A DNA stretch of 64,000 nucleotides from Arsukibacterium sp. (GTDB lineage Bacteria; Pseudomonadota; Gammaproteobacteria; Enterobacterales; Alteromonadaceae): contig NZ_JAGYIM010000017.1 in NCBI RefSeq assembly GCF_018402695.1, positions 56,074 to 120,073 of the forward strand, in the 5' to 3' direction. Both the position numbers and the translations under genes were made by a program. Of this stretch, positions 1-8,324 are shown in pieces. The notes under the pieces were generated by a model. It was not told the DNA's origin, did no database searches, and was given only the letters and a program-made list of their open reading frames with translations. Position 1 is the stretch's first letter. Each line of letters begins with the position of its first letter.

Positions 1-731
1 GGCCCAATATGCGCTTTGTAGCAGTTAAATCAGAATCACAACAAGCAGTATTAGTCATGCATCGTATGCGTGACCAATGGGTGCGTGAGCGCACTTCACT
101 GATGAACCAAATCCGCAGCTACCTGCACGAATTTGGTATCGTAATTAATCAGGGCCGTGCAGCGTTAGCCAAGACATTACCCTTGGTGGCTGAATCGGAA
201 ACCTTGCCACTGCTGTTTCGCCAAAGCATTGCGGATTTAGCTGATAGGCTGACTGATTTGGAGACGCGGATTACTGCACTTAACAAACGGATTGAAAGCT
301 GGAGTAAGCAAGATAGCACAGCAAAAGCACTACTCGAGGTCTGTGGTGTCGGTAGCGTTACCGCCAGTGCAGCAGTAGCAACGGCCGGCGATGTGTCAGT
401 ATTTAAAAACGGCCGGCAATTTGCCGCCTGGCTCGGTTTAGTACCAAGACAGAATTCATCGGGTGGTAAAACACAGCTCGGAGCCATTACCAAACGTGGC
501 GACCGTTATTTGCGAACACTGCTGGTGCAAGGCGCCCGAACAGTAATGCTGGCAGCGAGCAGAGCTCAAAAATCCACACAAACGACACCGATGTTTGAAT
601 GGATTTATAAGCTGCAAGAGCGACGGCCAAACAATGTCGTGGCAGTCGCTATCGCCGCAAAACAGGCCAGAATGCTCTGGGCAATTATGGCAAAACAGCA
701 GCGGCAAGATGCGCAAGGCTTATCAACATGA
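1..731 (+). CDS. IS110-family (IS1111-like) transposase; N-terminus lies outside the window
   Basis: Frame 3 is open from the first bases (..PNMRFVAVKSESQQ..). GVGSVTASAAVATAGD..FKNGRQFAAWLGLVPRQNSSGGK..ITKRGDRYLRTLLVQGA is the typical C-terminal IS116/IS110/IS902 transposase domain. The DEDD N-domain is off-window. Confidence 0.85.
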   Translation, partial: PNMRFVAVKSESQQAVLVMHRMRDQWVRERTSLMNQIRSYLHEFGIVINQGRAALAKTLPLVAESETLPLLFRQSIADLADRLTDLETRITALNKRIESWSKQDSTAKALLEVCGVGSVTASAAVATAGDVSVFKNGRQFAAWLGLVPRQNSSGGKTQLGAITKRGDRYLRTLLVQGARTVMLAASRAQKSTQTTPMFEWIYKLQERRPNNVVAVAIAAKQARMLWAIMAKQQRQDAQGLST

Positions 732-950
732 TGTAGCAATACAATGTAGTAAAACAGTAAGTTAACGACAACTCTCAACCAAAGAATTGCACTACAAAGC
801 GGATAAAACAAAGCGGCAACGACCGTGCACAGGAAGGGCCTGATAACAATCCCGGTATTCATTACCGTTGATGCGATGAGGCACCTGTGCGCGAAAGTTA
901 TCAGGGCTGGAGCATGGCTAACACCATGAAACTCACGAGCCGAATAGACG
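1..950 (+). mobile_element. IS110/IS1111-family insertion sequence (partial; right boundary uncertain, somewhere between 731 and ~1000)
   Basis: The transposase ORF is followed by ~200-280 nt of non-coding DNA, as is usual for this family. A 9-bp inverted repeat CCTGATAAC/GTTATCAGG lies at ~838-906. The boundary was not determined. Confidence 0.45.
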
Positions 951-1027
951 TATGCAGTCATTCACCGCCAAGTTTGATCACTTTGTTCTTGCAATAGAGG
1001 GGGAGTCCATAGACGGTTTGTTATGTG
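912..1027 (-). other. attC of cassette 3, probably truncated or disrupted (only the R''/L'' side is convincing)
   Basis: The minus strand reads CACATAACAAACCG.. starting at 1027, the same CACATAAC core as the attC at 1405-1487. I could not find a matching L'/R' partner with the GGGCGTTATGTG context. The only candidate R' is GGTGTTAGCC at ~912-921. Confidence 0.35.
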
Positions 1028-1401
1028 TGAATTTCAAATCGAAGCTCCCCGCCAGATATTTTTATAATGCCGAAATCACCGGTAAGCTCAAATCCACCAT
1101 CGACCACCTGCAATGTATCAATGTTGCCATAATCAATTGAACCGTAAGGATCAGTTGATGACATTACAGCTGATTTGGGCTTTAAACCAGATACGGAAAC
1201 TGTATTAACAAATTGAAGTATTGCTTTTCGGTAACACGTATATTCATTTAGCTTTGGCTCAACATAATATTTGGACTCTGGCCAAATACTGGCCTCCAGC
1301 TCAAGGCGCAGGCAGTTATTCTCATAATTCCAATCTAAAACGAAAGAATCATTGAGATCGATACCGTTAAATACTTCCATTTGGCGCCAATCCATAGTCA
1401 T
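1021..1401 (-). CDS. integron cassette 3 ORF, hypothetical protein (126 aa)
   Basis: A single ORF fills the cassette. Its stop codon TAA lies inside the attC core CACATAAC. There is no signal peptide and no family I recognise. Confidence 0.6.
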   Translation of the reverse strand: MTMDWRQMEVFNGIDLNDSFVLDWNYENNCLRLELEASIWPESKYYVEPKLNEYTCYRKAILQFVNTVSVSGLKPKSAVMSSTDPYGSIDYGNIDTLQVVDGGFELTGDFGIIKISGGELRFEIHT

Positions 1402-1404
1402 TCA

Positions 1405-1487
1405 CACATAACGCCCAAATATGCGGCGCCCGACGCAGGAGGGTGTCCGGCGCGTGAAACGCGCGTACATAATTTGCTTGTTATGTG
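1405..1487 (-). other. attC recombination site (cassette 2)
   Basis: Minus strand: CACATAAC-AAGCAAATTATG..GCGCGTTTCACGCGC..CATATTTGGGC-GTTATGTG. The terminal cores are inverted (RYYYAAC / GTTRRRY type). The inner arms pair imperfectly (CAAATTATG vs CATATTTG) with an unpaired T, as in attC extrahelical bases. Confidence 0.75.
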
Positions 1488-1489
1488 AT

Positions 1490-1801
1490 TTAATCAAAAA
1501 CGTACTCCTTAATTATAAAAACCTTTATGTGCTCACACTCTTGAGCATGGGCTGGCTTATGGTTTTTACAATAAGGCTCTTCATAGCCAATTACTCGCTT
1601 TGCCGTAACTAGCTTTGGACAAATCTCCATCGCACTACCTTTAGCGAAATACGATTGGCCAGAACCGTGCGGCTTTAGACTAAATACAACACCTAGCCCT
1701 TCCCTAGCCAACGGGCCGCAGTCGTCGACTTCCACTTCAATATCCTGGGCGAATACCACGGAACACCAAAGTCCTATTAGAAACGTTAAATATCTGATCA
1801 T
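1490..1801 (-). CDS. integron cassette 2 ORF, small secreted Cys-containing protein (~103 aa from ATG; the GTG at 1810 gives 106 aa)
   Basis: MIRYLTFLIGLWCSVVFA-QD is a signal peptide. The mature part has 5 Cys. The ORF fills the cassette between two attC sites. Confidence 0.6.
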   Translation of the reverse strand: MIRYLTFLIGLWCSVVFAQDIEVEVDDCGPLAREGLGVVFSLKPHGSGQSYFAKGSAMEICPKLVTAKRVIGYEEPYCKNHKPAHAQECEHIKVFIIKEYVFD

Positions 1802-1807
1802 AGTTTT

Positions 1808-1904
1808 CACATAACGCCCGGCTTTGGGGCGGACTTATAGCCGCGCAGCGGCGGAAAGGCCGTCCCAGCCCCGCAGGGGCGACAACAGCCGATTGTTAGA
1901 GCGC
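1808..1904 (-). other. attC recombination site (cassette 1)
   Basis: Minus strand: GCGCTCTAAC-AATCGGCT....AGCCGGGC-GTTATGTG. The R'' core GCTCTAAC is the exact complement of the GTTAGAGC junction at 2669-2676, as expected for one circularisable cassette. Confidence 0.8.
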
Positions 1905-1911
1905 ATTCGAG

Positions 1912-2613
1912 CTACGCATGAAGATCAACGAGTTCAGCAATTTTCTTTGCTACAACGGCCATAGAGTCTTCTGCAGTATCTAGGCCGCTCCTCGAGGCCA
2001 GCATTGGGCTGACATTACGCAGTGCGTCGTAAGTCGTCTTGTGCACAATTGGGACAAGCTGATTACGCGCCAGCAAGGCCGAGAGCTCTTTATCGGCGAC
2101 ACCTTCTTTTGGCAGCCTCACAAGAAGCGCAGGCGTTACAAGAACAAGTCCAATTTTTGAGTTCGCCAAGCCCTTATCGATTGCGCGCATCATCGGTACA
2201 CCTAAGCCAAGGTCCTTCTCGCTGAACCAGACTTTGACTCCAGCCGCCACGAGCAAGTCGTGCAGCTCCTTCGCTGACTCTTGGCGGTCGTCCCAAGCAT
2301 GGCAGAGAAACACATCCCGAAGATCTGGTTGCTGCGCTGCCCGTGCTTCAACTGCTTCGCGGAATGGTGTTAACGATACGATCTGGGCAGGCGTGTAAGA
2401 GACGGAAGAGCCGGCTCTCGACCAGCGTGGTCTTGAACCACCACTTGATCCGCTACCCCCGCTACTGCTGCGGTAGCTACTCCCTCCACTACCGGAAGAG
2501 GTGTAAGACGAAGAGTAGCCGCCGTAACCTCTACTACGATAACGACATGCTGGGCATGCAGCTGCTGCTGCCGCTGAACTATGACCGCGAACTGGAGCCG
2601 TGCATCTAGCCAT
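1912..2613 (-). CDS. TIR domain-containing protein with N-terminal Cys pair and Gly/Ser/Tyr low-complexity region (integron cassette 1)
   Basis: A strong SD (GAGGGAG) lies ~7 nt upstream of the ATG. The C-terminal ~140 aa has TIR hallmarks: DVFLCHAWDDRQ.., GVKVWFSEKDLGLG.., IGLVLVTPALL. The N-terminal part reads CPACRYRSRGYGGYSSSYTSSGSGGSSYRSSSGGSGSSGGS. Confidence 0.8.
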   Translation of the reverse strand: MARCTAPVRGHSSAAAAAACPACRYRSRGYGGYSSSYTSSGSGGSSYRSSSGGSGSSGGSRPRWSRAGSSVSYTPAQIVSLTPFREAVEARAAQQPDLRDVFLCHAWDDRQESAKELHDLLVAAGVKVWFSEKDLGLGVPMMRAIDKGLANSKIGLVLVTPALLVRLPKEGVADKELSALLARNQLVPIVHKTTYDALRNVSPMLASRSGLDTAEDSMAVVAKKIAELVDLHA

Positions 2614-2668
2614 CTCTTACTCCCTCTTTCAGCTTATTACTTCCGGTTGCGACAGAACCTGACGATGC

Positions 2669-2895
2669 GCTCTAACAATTTAATAGAAGGCACTATGCCC
2701 GCAAGTCGCACCAGCAAGTCGCCTTCAACAAAAAATTTAATTTCCCAAAACTAACCCGAAAAACACCGGTTATCAACAACTTTCTGTTTACCACTGTTAA
2801 TAAACTTAACTAAAAGTAGGCGTTGTGCCCGCAAGTTGGTGGATATTTAACTCATAGCAGACTACTGTATAAATAAACACTATCAAGGTGACGCT
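2669..2895. other. attI region (attI/cassette junction GTTAGAGC on the minus strand at 2676-2669, plus the upstream intI-proximal region)
   Basis: It lies between divergent intI and the first cassette. The junction core matches attC1 R''. Three copies of GCAAGT(C/T)G occur at 2701, 2714 and 2831; two of them extend to TGCCCGCAAGT. Confidence 0.5.
2865..2880. promoter_or_regulatory. LexA-box-like palindrome upstream of intI
   Basis: CTGTATAAATAAACAC compared with CTGT-N8-ACAG has one mismatch. It overlaps a TATAAA -10-like hexamer and ends 16 nt before the intI ATG. Confidence 0.4.
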
Positions 2896-3860
2896 ATGGC
2901 ATCCCCATTTCTGGAATATATCGCCGACTTTATGAGAACCCGCCGCTATGCCAGGCGGACTATTGACACCTACCTGTATTGGATCAAGTTTTTTATATTG
3001 CACAACAAAAAACAGCATCCAAATGCACTTGGCGATCTGGAAGTTGAACAGTTTCTGTCTTTTCTATCAAATCAACGCAATGTTGCGGTAAAAACGCAAG
3101 CAACGGCGCTTAATGCGTTGAGTTTTCTTTATAAACATATTATTCAGCGACCGTTGTCTTTGCAGCTAAATTTTAATAAAGCCCGTGTAGCTCAAAAGTT
3201 GCCAGTGGTATTAACCAGAGCAGAAATACAACAACTTCTATTAGTAATAGATCCCAAATACAAATTGATAGCCCAACTATTGTATGGCAGTGGTTTACGC
3301 CTGATGGAAGCAGTACGGCTTCGGGTGCAAGATATTGATTTTGACTACTTGTCAGTAATGGTGTGGCAGGGAAAAGGTAATAAAAACCGAAGGGTTACGC
3401 TGGCAGCAGAGTTAGTTCCTGTTTTACACATCCAAATTCATCAAATTGAACAGTATTTTCAGGCTGACTTCCAAAACCCGCAATATGCCGGTGTATGGCT
3501 GCCTTTTGCTCTTGCCCGAAAATATCCGGCAGCTCCTAGTGAAATTGGCTGGCAGTATTTATTTCCATCAGGCCAGTTAAGTGTTGATCCAGAATCTAAA
3601 CTACTACGGCGTCACCATATAGATGAAACAACTGTCAGGCGAGCCATTAAATTGGCGGCTCGACAGGCTAAAATTAAGAAAATGTAACCTGCCATACTTT
3701 GCGCCATTCATTTGCCACACATCTACTTGAAGCGGGTATGGACATCCGCACCGTACAAGAACAATTGGGCCATAGCGATGTACGCACCACCCAAATTTAC
3801 ACCCATATACTTAAACAAGGCGCCAGTGGCGTAAGAAGCCCGCTATCACAACTGCTATAA
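2896..3860 (+). pseudogene. intI: integron integrase IntI, interrupted by a frameshift at an A-run near 3676-3684
   Basis: Frame 1 (2896-3687) gives a 263-aa IntI-like N-terminal part, including the integron-specific ..WQYLFPS..RRHHIDE.. segment. The sequence continues in frame 3 as [55 protein letters not shown] to the TAA at 3858-3860. The catalytic HxxR/H/Y residues are downstream of the shift. Confidence 0.85.
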
Positions 3861-3884
3861 AAAAAGGGCGCCGTAGCGCCCTGT
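3861..3884 (-). terminator. intrinsic terminator after prpF
   Basis: GGGCGC-cgta-GCGCCC hairpin, followed on the minus strand by a T-run (plus-strand aaaaaa at 3859-3865). Confidence 0.6.
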
Positions 3885-3902
3885 TCAACTGGTAGTTTCT
3901 GG

Positions 3903-5090
3903 TTAGAAGCTATCACCTGGTATGCGGACCCAGCCTTCCATTAGTACCCGGGCGCTGCGGCTCATAATGGCTTTGGTGACTGTCCATTCACCATTAACCT
4001 GTTCAGCTGCCGCCCCTACTTTCAACGTACCTGACGGGTGGCCGAAGCGCACGGCTTCACGCTCAGTGCCACCGGCGGCCAGGTTAACTAACGTGCCGGG
4101 TATCGCAGCGGCGGTGCCAATGGCGACGGCAGCGGTACCCATCATGGCATGATGCAGTTTACCCATAGACAATGCCCGTACCAGCAGATCAATATCACTG
4201 GCAGCTACCTGTTTGCCGCTGGATGAGACATAGGCCTGCGGCGGCGCGACAAAGGCGACTTTCGGTGTGTGCTGGCGTACGGTTGCCTGTTCAATGTTGT
4301 TAATTAAGCCCATTTTCAGCGCGCCGTGGGCACGGATGGTTTCAAACCGTTGTAAGGCCTCAACATCGCCATTTATTGCCTCTTGCAACTCGGTGCCGCT
4401 GTAGCCAATATCGGCAGCATTAACAAAAATGGTCGGAATACCGGCATTAATCAGCGTTGCTTTAATGCGGCCAATACCCGGCACATCCAGCTCGTCAACG
4501 ATATTGCCGGTAGGGAACATCGCGCCCCCGCCCTCGCCTGCATCAGCGGCCGGGTTGAGAAACTCTATTTGTACTTCAGCTGCCGGAAAGGTTACACCAT
4601 CCAGCTCAAAATCACCGGTTTCCTGCACGTCGCCGTTTGTGATTGGTACATGGGCAATAATGGTTTTATTAATATTGCCCTGCCATATCCGCACGGTGCA
4701 AAACCCGTTTTCAGGAATGCGATCTTTCGCTACCAGGCCATTGCTGATAGCAAATGAACCTACCGCAGCACTTAAGTTACCGCAGTTACCGCTCCAGTCG
4801 ATAAAGGGTTTATCTATCGCGACCTGGCCGAAAATATAGTCAACATCGTGGTTGGCTTTGCTGCTTTTGCTTAAAATTACCGCCTTACTGGTACTGGATG
4901 TCGCGCCGCCCATACCATCGGTATGCTTACCATAGGGGTCCGGGCTGCCAATAACCCGTAGTAACAACTTGTCACGGGCAGAGCCTGACTTTTGAGCCTC
5001 CTCTGGTAAGTCGTCCAGTTTAAAAAACACCCCTTTCGAGGTTCCGCCACGCATGTAAGTTGCGGGGATTTTAATTTGTGGTGTAGTCAT
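3903..5090 (-). CDS. prpF: 2-methylaconitate cis-trans isomerase PrpF
   Basis: MTTPQIKIPATYMRGGTSKGVFF.. is the PrpF family signature and the gene is adjacent to acnD. Start chosen at the internal ATG at 5090 rather than the ORF maximum at 5138. Confidence 0.9.
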   Translation of the reverse strand: MTTPQIKIPATYMRGGTSKGVFFKLDDLPEEAQKSGSARDKLLLRVIGSPDPYGKHTDGMGGATSSTSKAVILSKSSKANHDVDYIFGQVAIDKPFIDWSGNCGNLSAAVGSFAISNGLVAKDRIPENGFCTVRIWQGNINKTIIAHVPITNGDVQETGDFELDGVTFPAAEVQIEFLNPAADAGEGGGAMFPTGNIVDELDVPGIGRIKATLINAGIPTIFVNAADIGYSGTELQEAINGDVEALQRFETIRAHGALKMGLINNIEQATVRQHTPKVAFVAPPQAYVSSSGKQVAASDIDLLVRALSMGKLHHAMMGTAAVAIGTAAAIPGTLVNLAAGGTEREAVRFGHPSGTLKVGAAAEQVNGEWTVTKAIMSRSARVLMEGWVRIPGDSF

Positions 5091-5146
5091 AGTTGTTACC
5101 CATTGAATTTTTTTATTGCGTGGAGTACGAGCCGACAACCCTATTT

Positions 5147-5199: not shown

Positions 5200-5276
5200 C
5201 GACAAAACAGGGCATCGACTCTCCCTTCGGAAAAAATGCACTCTGTCAGCGAAGATTAGAACCTCTGAAATGTTGT

Positions 5277-5330
5277 CACAGAGTGTCTGAATCCTGCCGC
5301 AGGCATAAGGACGAGTTGCTGTGACAAGCA
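5277..5330 (-). repeat. intergenic repeat copy B (inverted relative to copy A)
   Basis: The reverse complement, TGCTTGTCACAGCAACTCGTCCTTATGCCTGCGGCAGGATTCAGACACTCTGTG, is near-identical to copy C. Confidence 0.65.
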
Positions 5331-5381
5331 GTTCAGAGCGTTGTAATCGCAGCAATTACTGCTTACTTTTGGCAACAGCAG

Positions 5382-8120: not shown

Positions 8121-8218
8121 GCAAACCGGTTCGTACACAAACTTACCGGTTTATTAGCTGGCTAAACGCTCTCTAAAAATTCGGGTTAATATGCAACCTA
8201 TCGGTTGGAATCCCGCCA

Positions 8219-8273
8219 TGCTCGCCACAGCAACTCGCCCTTATGCCTGCGGCAGGGCTCAGACACTCTGTGG
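8219..8273 (+). repeat. intergenic repeat copy C
   Basis: TGCTCGCCACAGCAACTCGCCCTTATGCCTGCGGCAGGGCTCAGACACTCTGTGG; see copies A and B. Confidence 0.65.
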
Positions 8274-8324
8274 CTGCGCTAACGGGTTCCAACCTCAGTT
8301 CCGTTTTACAGCTTTGCTAGTTAC

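Follow-up and report, generated by a model that had tools for sequence, protein, structure and literature searches.

The first 3,860 nt of a 64,000-nt stretch of DNA (hereafter the window), from an Arsukibacterium-like gammaproteobacterium, very probably carry a chromosomal integron, seen at its integrase-proximal end beside the propionate (prp) operon, one whose platform is most likely frozen and whose third cassette recombination site (attC) has been entered by an insertion sequence (IS). The integron is made up of an inactivated integrase gene (intI), an attI site, two complete cassettes and a third cassette with an IS-split attC (Table 1). All of these components belong to known kinds, and together they represent known integron biology. 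A first-pass annotation of this DNA had already proposed an integron, and a direct check found all of its coordinates and motifs in the sequence.

The integrase gene had been described as an integron-type intI broken by a frameshift, and both parts of this description are borne out by the sequence as read. Its open reading frames (ORFs) run from 2896 to 3687 and then, in another frame, from 3699 to 3860. Alone, the 263-residue N-terminal product scores 337.4 bits on the NCBIfam model TIGR02249 “integron integrase” (cutoff 265), aligning with profile positions 1-257, and the 53-residue ORF downstream takes the profile up again at 264-315. With the models for XerC and XerD the scores are 67-68 bits, against cutoffs of about 330. 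When one A is added to the run at 3679-3682, the result is a 321-residue protein (repaired IntI) that aligns without gaps to the Vibrio cholerae integrase VchIntIA (PDB 2A3V; E 8e-130, 193/320 identical). Conserved in repaired IntI are R135, K160, H267, R270, H293, Y302, W157, W219, P232, H240 and H241, which we take, from the literature on 2A3V, to be catalytic or to contact extrahelical bases. The additional segment specific to IntI (186-245 in VchIntIA), as defined in PMC3108266, is also present, with 35 of its 60 positions identical.

The frameshift itself consists of a run that reads AAAA at 3679-3682, compared with AAAAA in one Arsukibacterium locus (L006) and a longer in-frame A run in another (L007). 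Because one A is missing from the run, the protein encoded by the sequence as read lacks its nucleophile: it ends at residue 263, lacks four of the six catalytic residues (H267, R270, H293 and Y302, the last being the nucleophile) and is not an intact, catalytically competent integrase. Intact 321-residue orthologues with 91-94% identity are found in Arsukibacterium. A recombination breakpoint at the frameshift was considered and rejected, as sliding-window identity shows none there.

The attI site is defined by comparison of the window with seven loci (L001-L007) that carry an intI orthologue either beside prpF or at a contig end. Homology to these loci spans prpF, intI and the 220-bp intergenic region and, in all seven, ends at 2672-2674. 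This end coincides with the AAC (read as GTT on the strand of the cassettes) at the predicted G|TT crossover, where the plus strand reads GCTCTAAC at 2669-2676, and beyond it the cassettes differ from genome to genome. The comparison thus places an attI beside intI with insertion at G|TT, as in an integron, and gives the outcome that the first-pass annotation had predicted for such a comparison, with cassettes that vary and an intI/prpF junction that stays fixed. On the attI side, conservation of the ~35 nt next to this point (2672-2708) is 88-93% even in loci of Rheinheimera and Zobellella with IntI proteins that are only 72-79% identical, and the remainder of the attI spacer is not conserved in these loci. 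A 26-nt direct repeat (family D2; 2681-2706 and 2811-2836) is kept in relatives, and we infer that its two copies are candidate integrase-binding repeats.

When the window is compared with the 20-nt LexA box of the E. coli type, allowing up to three mismatches, the site TACTGTATAAATAAACACTA upstream of intI is the sole match, against a chance expectation of 0. L001 and L006 have kept this site, while two Rheinheimera loci (L032 and L036) carry CTGTATACTTAAACAG at the same position, a perfect CTGT-N8-ACAG. Judged by its sequence, this LexA-like box fits the widespread control of intI by LexA (PMC3108266).

The two intact attC sites are joined to their cassettes by a junction logic that turned out stronger than first claimed. 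The plus strand reads GTTAGAGC at 1895-1902 and CACATAAC at both 1405-1412 and 1808-1815, and a repeat finder places perfect inverted repeats at the predicted cassette starts and at the cassettes’ own attCs: 1892-1906 and 2665-2679 are complementary over 15 nt (100%), and 1020-1032 and 1400-1412 over 13 nt (100%). By our own estimate, 0.0025 and 0.04 perfect inverted repeats of these lengths, respectively, would be expected by chance in 2.3 kb. Every cassette begins with bases complementary to the R'' box of its own attC. In attC2, the 83-bp palindrome has its arms at 1405-1420 and 1472-1487. On the plus strand, attC2 folds with a z-score of -3.2 and the other palindrome with -2.3, against -2.2 and -1.2 for the minus strand; better folding of the plus strand is expected if, for cassettes on the minus strand, it serves as the recombinogenic bottom strand. 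The R''-L'' arm carries extra unpaired bases beside the stop codon of each ORF, which is the canonical orientation.

To score these palindromes as attCs we used a proxy covariance model, R1, in place of the IntegronFinder attC_4 model. R1 was built from 15 attCs in the arrays of L001, L006, L032 and L036, with window sequences excluded, and its structure imposes the R-box and L-box pairs and one extrahelical position. Run with filters off on both strands of the 64 kb, it returned two plus-strand sites, 1406-1486 (53.5 bits, E 1e-12) and 1809-1901 (34.7 bits, E 2e-7), and its third-best match reached 12.2 bits (E 0.49), which is chance level. Both palindromes named as attCs in the first-pass annotation (1405-1487 and 1808-1904) are therefore scored by the proxy model, with the R''-L''/L'-R' architecture, extrahelical bases and recombinogenic bottom strand of an attC. 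R1 behaves as an attC detector: it made 257 matches in 32 loci, including the V. cholerae repeats (VCRs) and arrays of Colwellia, Pseudoalteromonas and Shewanella, and in intI-anchored loci all but two of its matches lie upstream of intI on the expected strand, with 0 downstream. A Rheinheimera array contains an attC (L036:9006-9097) that has other cassettes on either side and shows 97.8% identity to attC1; within the window, attC1 and attC2 share their ends only. Rfam holds no family for attC or for an IS guide RNA, and scans of 1-3000 at gathering and E-value thresholds gave no relevant matches.

Two home-made attC scanners, one based on forced AAC:GTT folding and the other on an L-box stem score, were dropped as too permissive in favour of the covariance model; they returned 75 and 31 minus-strand candidates, and the plus strand gave a comparable excess (23 candidates with the second scanner). 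Two palindromes of ~90-115 bp, related to each other, lie in the prpF-acnD and acnD-prpC spacers (5256-5346 and 8191-8309), where they share GCCTGCGGCAGG and CTGTGRC. They resemble repetitive extragenic palindromic (REP) elements, and naive stem scoring ranks them above the real attCs.

Table 1. Features of the integron and its immediate surroundings (window coordinates).
Feature	Position	Strand	Details
IS1111-type element, 3' 1013 bp of ~1410 bp	1-1013	+	C-terminal part of transposase, to stop at 731
attC3 remnant	1014-1027	-	R'' box CACATAAC (1027->1020) plus 6 nt AAACCG
Cassette 3, truncated in attC	1014-1411	-	ORF 1021-1401 (126 aa); alternative start 1395 (124 aa)
attC2, recombination site of cassette 2	1405-1487	-	crossover between G1412 and T1411
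Cassette 2	1412-1814	-	ORF 1490-1801 (ATG, 103 aa) or 1490-1810 (GTG, 106 aa)
attC1, recombination site of cassette 1	1808-1904	-	crossover between G1815 and T1814
Cassette 1, attI-proximal	1815-2675	-	ORF 1912-2613, 233-aa TIR-domain protein
attI and divergent promoter region	2674-2895	-	crossover G|TT at 2676|2675; conserved core 2672-2708
LexA-box-like site TACTGTATAAATAAACACTA	2863-2882	+	14 bp upstream of intI ATG
intI, integron integrase gene	2896-3860	+	split by -1 frameshift, one A missing in 3679-3682
GC-rich hairpin, terminator-like	3865-3882		between convergent intI and prpF
prpF, fixed chromosomal neighbour of intI	3903-5138	-	first gene of prp operon flank; TIGR02334, 753.7 bits

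Several observations weigh against this reading. The LexA-like box has ACAC where the consensus has ACAG, and a simple consensus search of both strands of 700-3950 found no sigma-70 promoter for the cassettes (Pc) or for intI. The attCs used to train R1 were picked by eye in related arrays. A sedentary chromosomal integron holds a large array of more than about 20 cassettes with highly similar attCs, whereas here three cassettes are visible before the window edge and the two intact attCs are unlike in their centres, such that the visible part does not look like a typical sedentary array. Finally, the frameshift lies in a homopolymer and was seen in one assembly only, such that it could be a sequencing error.

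Were the shortened A-run at 3679-3682 an error of sequencing or assembly, the integron would be fully functional, an outcome that we consider unlikely. The lesion comprises one homopolymer base, all other codons are intact, the catalytic residues are kept downstream in the shifted frame, and the closest IntI orthologues are intact; a homopolymer error is possible because the truncated product is on record from a single contig. However, systematic homopolymer errors are not typical of runs as short as four A, a 264-bp insertion has independently disrupted intI in L006 and L007, and inactivated intI genes are common, at 43-46% of homologues (PMC3108266). The element inserted in the orthologous genes (L006:3861-4129 and L007:~1577-1845) is the same in both loci, has terminal inverted repeats AGTGCTCTTTCCAGCTGATTATGA...TCATAATTAGCTGAAAAGAGCAC and looks like a miniature inverted-repeat transposable element. 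It is a second, independent route of intI inactivation in the clade.

It is quite unlikely that, with intI dead, a paralogous integron integrase from another part of the genome continues to move the cassettes in trans. Two intI genes, differing in type, are present in each of three related Arsukibacterium genomes (L004 and L029, L006 and L038, L007 and L027), yet no second intI lies within the 64-kb window, and attI recognition is usually specific to the cognate integrase. An independent assembly contributes a 1690-bp contig (L090, Logan SRR14300309) that is 100% identical to the window from 2676 to 987, starting exactly at the G of the attI G|TT junction and ending inside the IS. This start could reflect a branch of the assembly graph at the recombination point, as movement in trans might leave, but it may simply be due to strain mixture or to contig cutting by the assembler. 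The possibility that the locus is no integron at all, and instead a phage or Xer-type tyrosine recombinase beside chance palindromes or REP-like repeats, can safely be discarded: the naive stem scan does yield many AAC...GTT palindromes of similar score, and palindromes alone would be unconvincing, but this explanation is refuted by the profile scores, where the integron model passes its cutoff and the Xer models fall far short of theirs, by the breakpoints at G|TT in comparison with other loci, and by the structure-aware model, which sets both attCs apart by more than 22 bits.

Within the frozen integron that we favour, the three visible cassettes are single promoterless ORFs co-oriented on the minus strand, with intI on the plus strand; such ORFs, each with its own attC and with the same boundaries elsewhere, are what an integron is expected to contain. 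The first-pass annotation had regarded all three ORFs as orphans, a view that does not hold: they encode a ThsB-like TIR protein, a rare small protein that is putatively secreted and a member of a family named “Immunity protein 50”. On the evidence of sequence comparison, the cassettes are mobile units: cassettes 1 and 3 are found again, with unchanged 5' boundaries, in arrays of other bacteria, which for cassette 3 belong to other genera. The region had further been described as low in G+C content, which is true of cassettes 2 and 3, attI and intI (0.39-0.43) but not of the cassette 1 ORF (0.55) or the attCs (0.57-0.67), and 1021-2676 overall stands at 0.495, compared with 0.489 for the whole window.

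The protein of cassette 1, whose ATG is preceded by the ribosome-binding site GAGGGAG, has a Gly/Ser/Tyr-rich N-terminus and matches Pfam TIR_2 (E 2e-14). Its residues 1-231 align with positions 1-234 of 234 of the PADLOC ThsB1 model PDLC00424 at 413 bits, which identifies it as a TIR protein of the Thoeris ThsB kind, and it matches TIR NADases in the PDB at E 1e-14 to 2e-16. No Thoeris ThsA partner adjoins it: attI lies on one side and cassette 2 on the other, and neither cassette 2 nor cassette 3 matches a Pfam or PADLOC model. The protein has more than 8000 database homologues, of which the best 120 are all 77-98% identical and come from distant taxa, with source labels that include Bordetella, Gallionellales, Halopseudomonas and a metagenome-assembled genome of Peribacteraceae.

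At the nucleotide level, the cassette 1 gene recurs elsewhere at 83-84% identity, and the cassette start GTTAGAGCGCA is the same in L086, an array with several R1 matches, and in L084, from Bordetella trematum. In the latter (CP018898.1, 447740-460435), the TIR cassette, including its 5' boundary GTTAGAGCACATCG, adjoins a cluster of type IV secretion genes with TrbL, VirB8 and TrbI, and has no recognisable attC after it, a setting that suggests an integrative conjugative element and not a cassette array. We consider it possible but doubtful that cassette 1 encodes a self-sufficient ThsB-like TIR NADase (a Thoeris without ThsA) that has spread widely and has become fixed in the expressed first position through integrase loss and IS pinning; if this were true, the TIR cassette would be among the most widely disseminated integron cassettes. 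In the 5' leader of cassette 1 (2641-2658), GTTCTGTCGCAACCGGAAG on the minus strand resembles GTTCTGTCTCGCCGGAAG, the start of the first cassette of L001, and could be the remnant of an older cassette junction or a matter of chance.

Cassette 2 encodes a protein whose N-terminus, judged by eye, resembles a signal peptide (MIRYLTFLIGLWCSVVFA|QD). It belongs to a family of small, rare proteins of ~100 residues that forms 26 clusters at 50% identity, and it has no Pfam, NCBIfam or PADLOC match. The cassette 3 protein has 199 homologues, up to 94% identical, in Shewanella, Rheinheimera and Photobacterium, a family named “Immunity protein 50” by one source only. Most homologues start as its ORF would at 1395, and its TAA stop lies inside R''. 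The 5' boundary of cassette 3, G|TTATGTGTGAATGACTATGG, is identical in Shewanella baltica (L088) and Rheinheimera hassiensis (L089), where the cassette belongs to arrays whose small ORFs all share one orientation, and where its attC is intact and 78 nt long (L088:4370-4447, 51.4 bits; L089:4355-4432, 58.5 bits). Homology of the window to these attC3 sites ends after AAC+AA(A/T)CCG, and the remainder of attC3, with an expected form of ...CGTCATTC...GGGGCG|TTA, would have been displaced beyond the IS and off the window.

The IS had been taken as the far border of the array. It does lie at the far side, but as an insertion within attC3 and not as a simple border: comparison with L088, L089 and a further copy of this IS end in L032 places the junction at 1013|1014, 6 nt after the AAC of the attC3 R''. 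The partial transposase (1-731) scores 222.6 bits on the IS110-family model NF033542 (cutoff 140) and also matches Pfam Transposase_20; it is followed by a non-coding region (732-1013) that includes CCTGATAACAA at 839-849, the right subterminal inverted repeat GAGGGGGAGTCCAT (997-1010) and an end ...AGA at 1013. An IS110-type DEDD transposase, subterminal inverted repeats and a downstream non-coding region mark this as an IS1111-type element. Its end (833-1013) is 93% identical to that in L032 (37-219), and a full copy in L100 is ~1410 bp long, with a 345-residue transposase, perfect 14-bp subterminal inverted repeats and ~285 nt of non-coding region downstream of the transposase gene (tnp). 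The array of L100 continues on both sides of the IS, which makes it plausible that more cassettes lie beyond the start of the window. As for the transposase itself, its best plasmid match has 52% amino acid identity and a generic name only, and it has no close named relative.

Insertion of this IS is both site- and orientation-specific. A metagenome scan for the IS end found 15 further loci, and in all 17 IS copies, at 15 distinct sites with the window included, a GTTA stands 5-6 nt past the IS end. In 11 of the 15 metagenome loci there are complete attCs farther downstream on that strand, and the orientation of the IS relative to complete attCs is constant. The non-coding region (282 nt) is strongly structured (fold z -3.5), and its conserved CCTGATAACAA equals the top-strand TAAC+AA of the target. 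Elements of the IS1111 type that target attC are guided by a seekRNA encoded downstream of tnp (PMC11187229), and the window IS probably matches this published RNA-guided behaviour, with a putative seekRNA from 732-1013 that would carry GAUAACAA. Covariation between guide and target after GATAACAA was suggested by the first two IS copies and failed with eight, the match between guide and flank being 10/10 in L092 and limited to the 6-nt core in L097; the sole guide-target match retained is the constant TTGTTA/TAACAA.

The chromosomal setting of the platform is shared by relatives. An intI-prpF junction is common to 15 loci of Arsukibacterium, Rheinheimera and Alishewanella, with a distance of 32-817 bp in the 13 where it can be measured and prpF also present in L025 and L030. 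Sedentary integrons characteristically keep one chromosomal site across related species, and because the junction is common to these 15 loci we regard the platform as chromosomal and old. The type of intI found at this site differs, however: in Arsukibacterium indicum a 70%-identity type lies at prpF, and the window-type gene, with the 264-bp insertion, is located elsewhere. When 3795-3960 is compared, the last ~70 bp of the window intI and the terminator follow the prpF locus, with 90% identity to L027 versus 64% falling to 40% for L007, a pattern that hints at platform replacement by homologous recombination in the conserved 3' end of intI.

Arrays of relatives also contain cassettes that lack an ORF. 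One of ~330 bp with a 55-nt attC recurs in Arsukibacterium and Rheinheimera (L001:489-830, L006:2434-2772, L032:2773-3110, L036:9434-9775), adjoins attI in L006 and L036, and may be a non-coding RNA or promoter cassette. Another, of ~313 bp, is present three times in a TARA Arsukibacterium scaffold (L001:1128-2547), with two copies in tandem beside attI. Farther into the window, 11440-11580 matches the Rfam families SdsR/RyeB (58 bits) and SraC/RyeA (43.6 bits), an antisense pair of small RNAs, both above their gathering scores.

In integrons, the LexA-repressed intI is expressed during the SOS response, and IntI recognises attC as a folded bottom strand, which it recombines with attI at G|TT, such that new cassettes enter next to attI and are read away from intI. 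The platform described here would have worked in the same way, with a LexA-controlled intI, recombination of bottom-strand attC with attI at G|TT and insertion beside attI, and its three cassettes, predicted to carry a ThsB-like TIR gene, a small secreted-protein gene and an “Imm50”-like gene, stand in the orientation that this would produce. With a truncated intI product the platform would most likely be frozen, and cassette movement would need a second IntI in trans, the presence of which in this genome would be surmised from its relatives. The IS inside attC3 would also disable excision of cassette 3.

Compared with known systems, the integron shares several features with the chromosomal superintegron of V. 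cholerae, including an IntI that, once repaired, aligns without gaps and has the same catalytic and extrahelical-base-binding residues, an intI divergent from the cassettes with a LexA-type box before it, and attCs of the same R/L architecture, as the VCRs are scored by R1 although this model derives from Arsukibacterium and Rheinheimera sites. In contrast, the V. cholerae array holds roughly 180 cassettes, compared with the three visible here, its VCRs are ~125 nt long and near-identical whereas the attCs of the window are 81-93 nt and heterogeneous, and the window intI is frameshifted and occupies a different chromosomal site, next to prpF. Closer likenesses are found in the small chromosomal integrons of Shewanella, Rheinheimera, Alishewanella and Arsukibacterium, with which the window has cassettes and attCs in common; those of the last three genera have the same intI-prpF junction, and the attI core extends to loci of 72-79% IntI identity. 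Relative to these integrons, the window’s cassette content is unique to its genome, and its prpF site holds the window-type intI where A. indicum has the 70%-identity type.

The IS resembles the IS1111-attC group (ISPa21, ISKpn4, ISPst6 and ISUnCu1), reportedly the subject of work by Tetu and Holmes in 2008 and by Post and Hall in 2009, in its DEDD transposase, subterminal inverted repeats, long structured region downstream of tnp and site- and orientation-specific insertion at one attC end. Its transposase, however, is without a close named relative, and the likeness is one of features. Cassette 1, in turn, matches Thoeris ThsB and the stand-alone TIR NADases PdTIR (3H16), TcpB/BtpA (4LQC) and AbTIR (7UWG), a likeness drawn from sequence alone, and differs from them in the absence of ThsA from its neighbouring cassettes and in its Gly/Ser/Tyr-rich N-terminal extension.

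A literature search found no integron paper for the Arsukibacterium, Rheinheimera and Alishewanella lineage, and the study of defence-type cassettes in chromosomal integrons is an established field that is still active (bioRxiv 10.1101/2024.07.02.601686). Our understanding of integrons is unchanged by this locus. Its practical value is that of a clean test bed, as single-base precision has been reached for the attI breakpoint and for the boundaries of the cassettes, and intact orthologous integrases exist; the TIR cassette would suit a one-gene anti-phage test well. For the Arsukibacterium, Rheinheimera and Alishewanella lineage, the window adds one well-documented small chromosomal integron, a single locus that illustrates integrase decay, attC-specific attack by an IS, and defence-type cassettes common to several genera.

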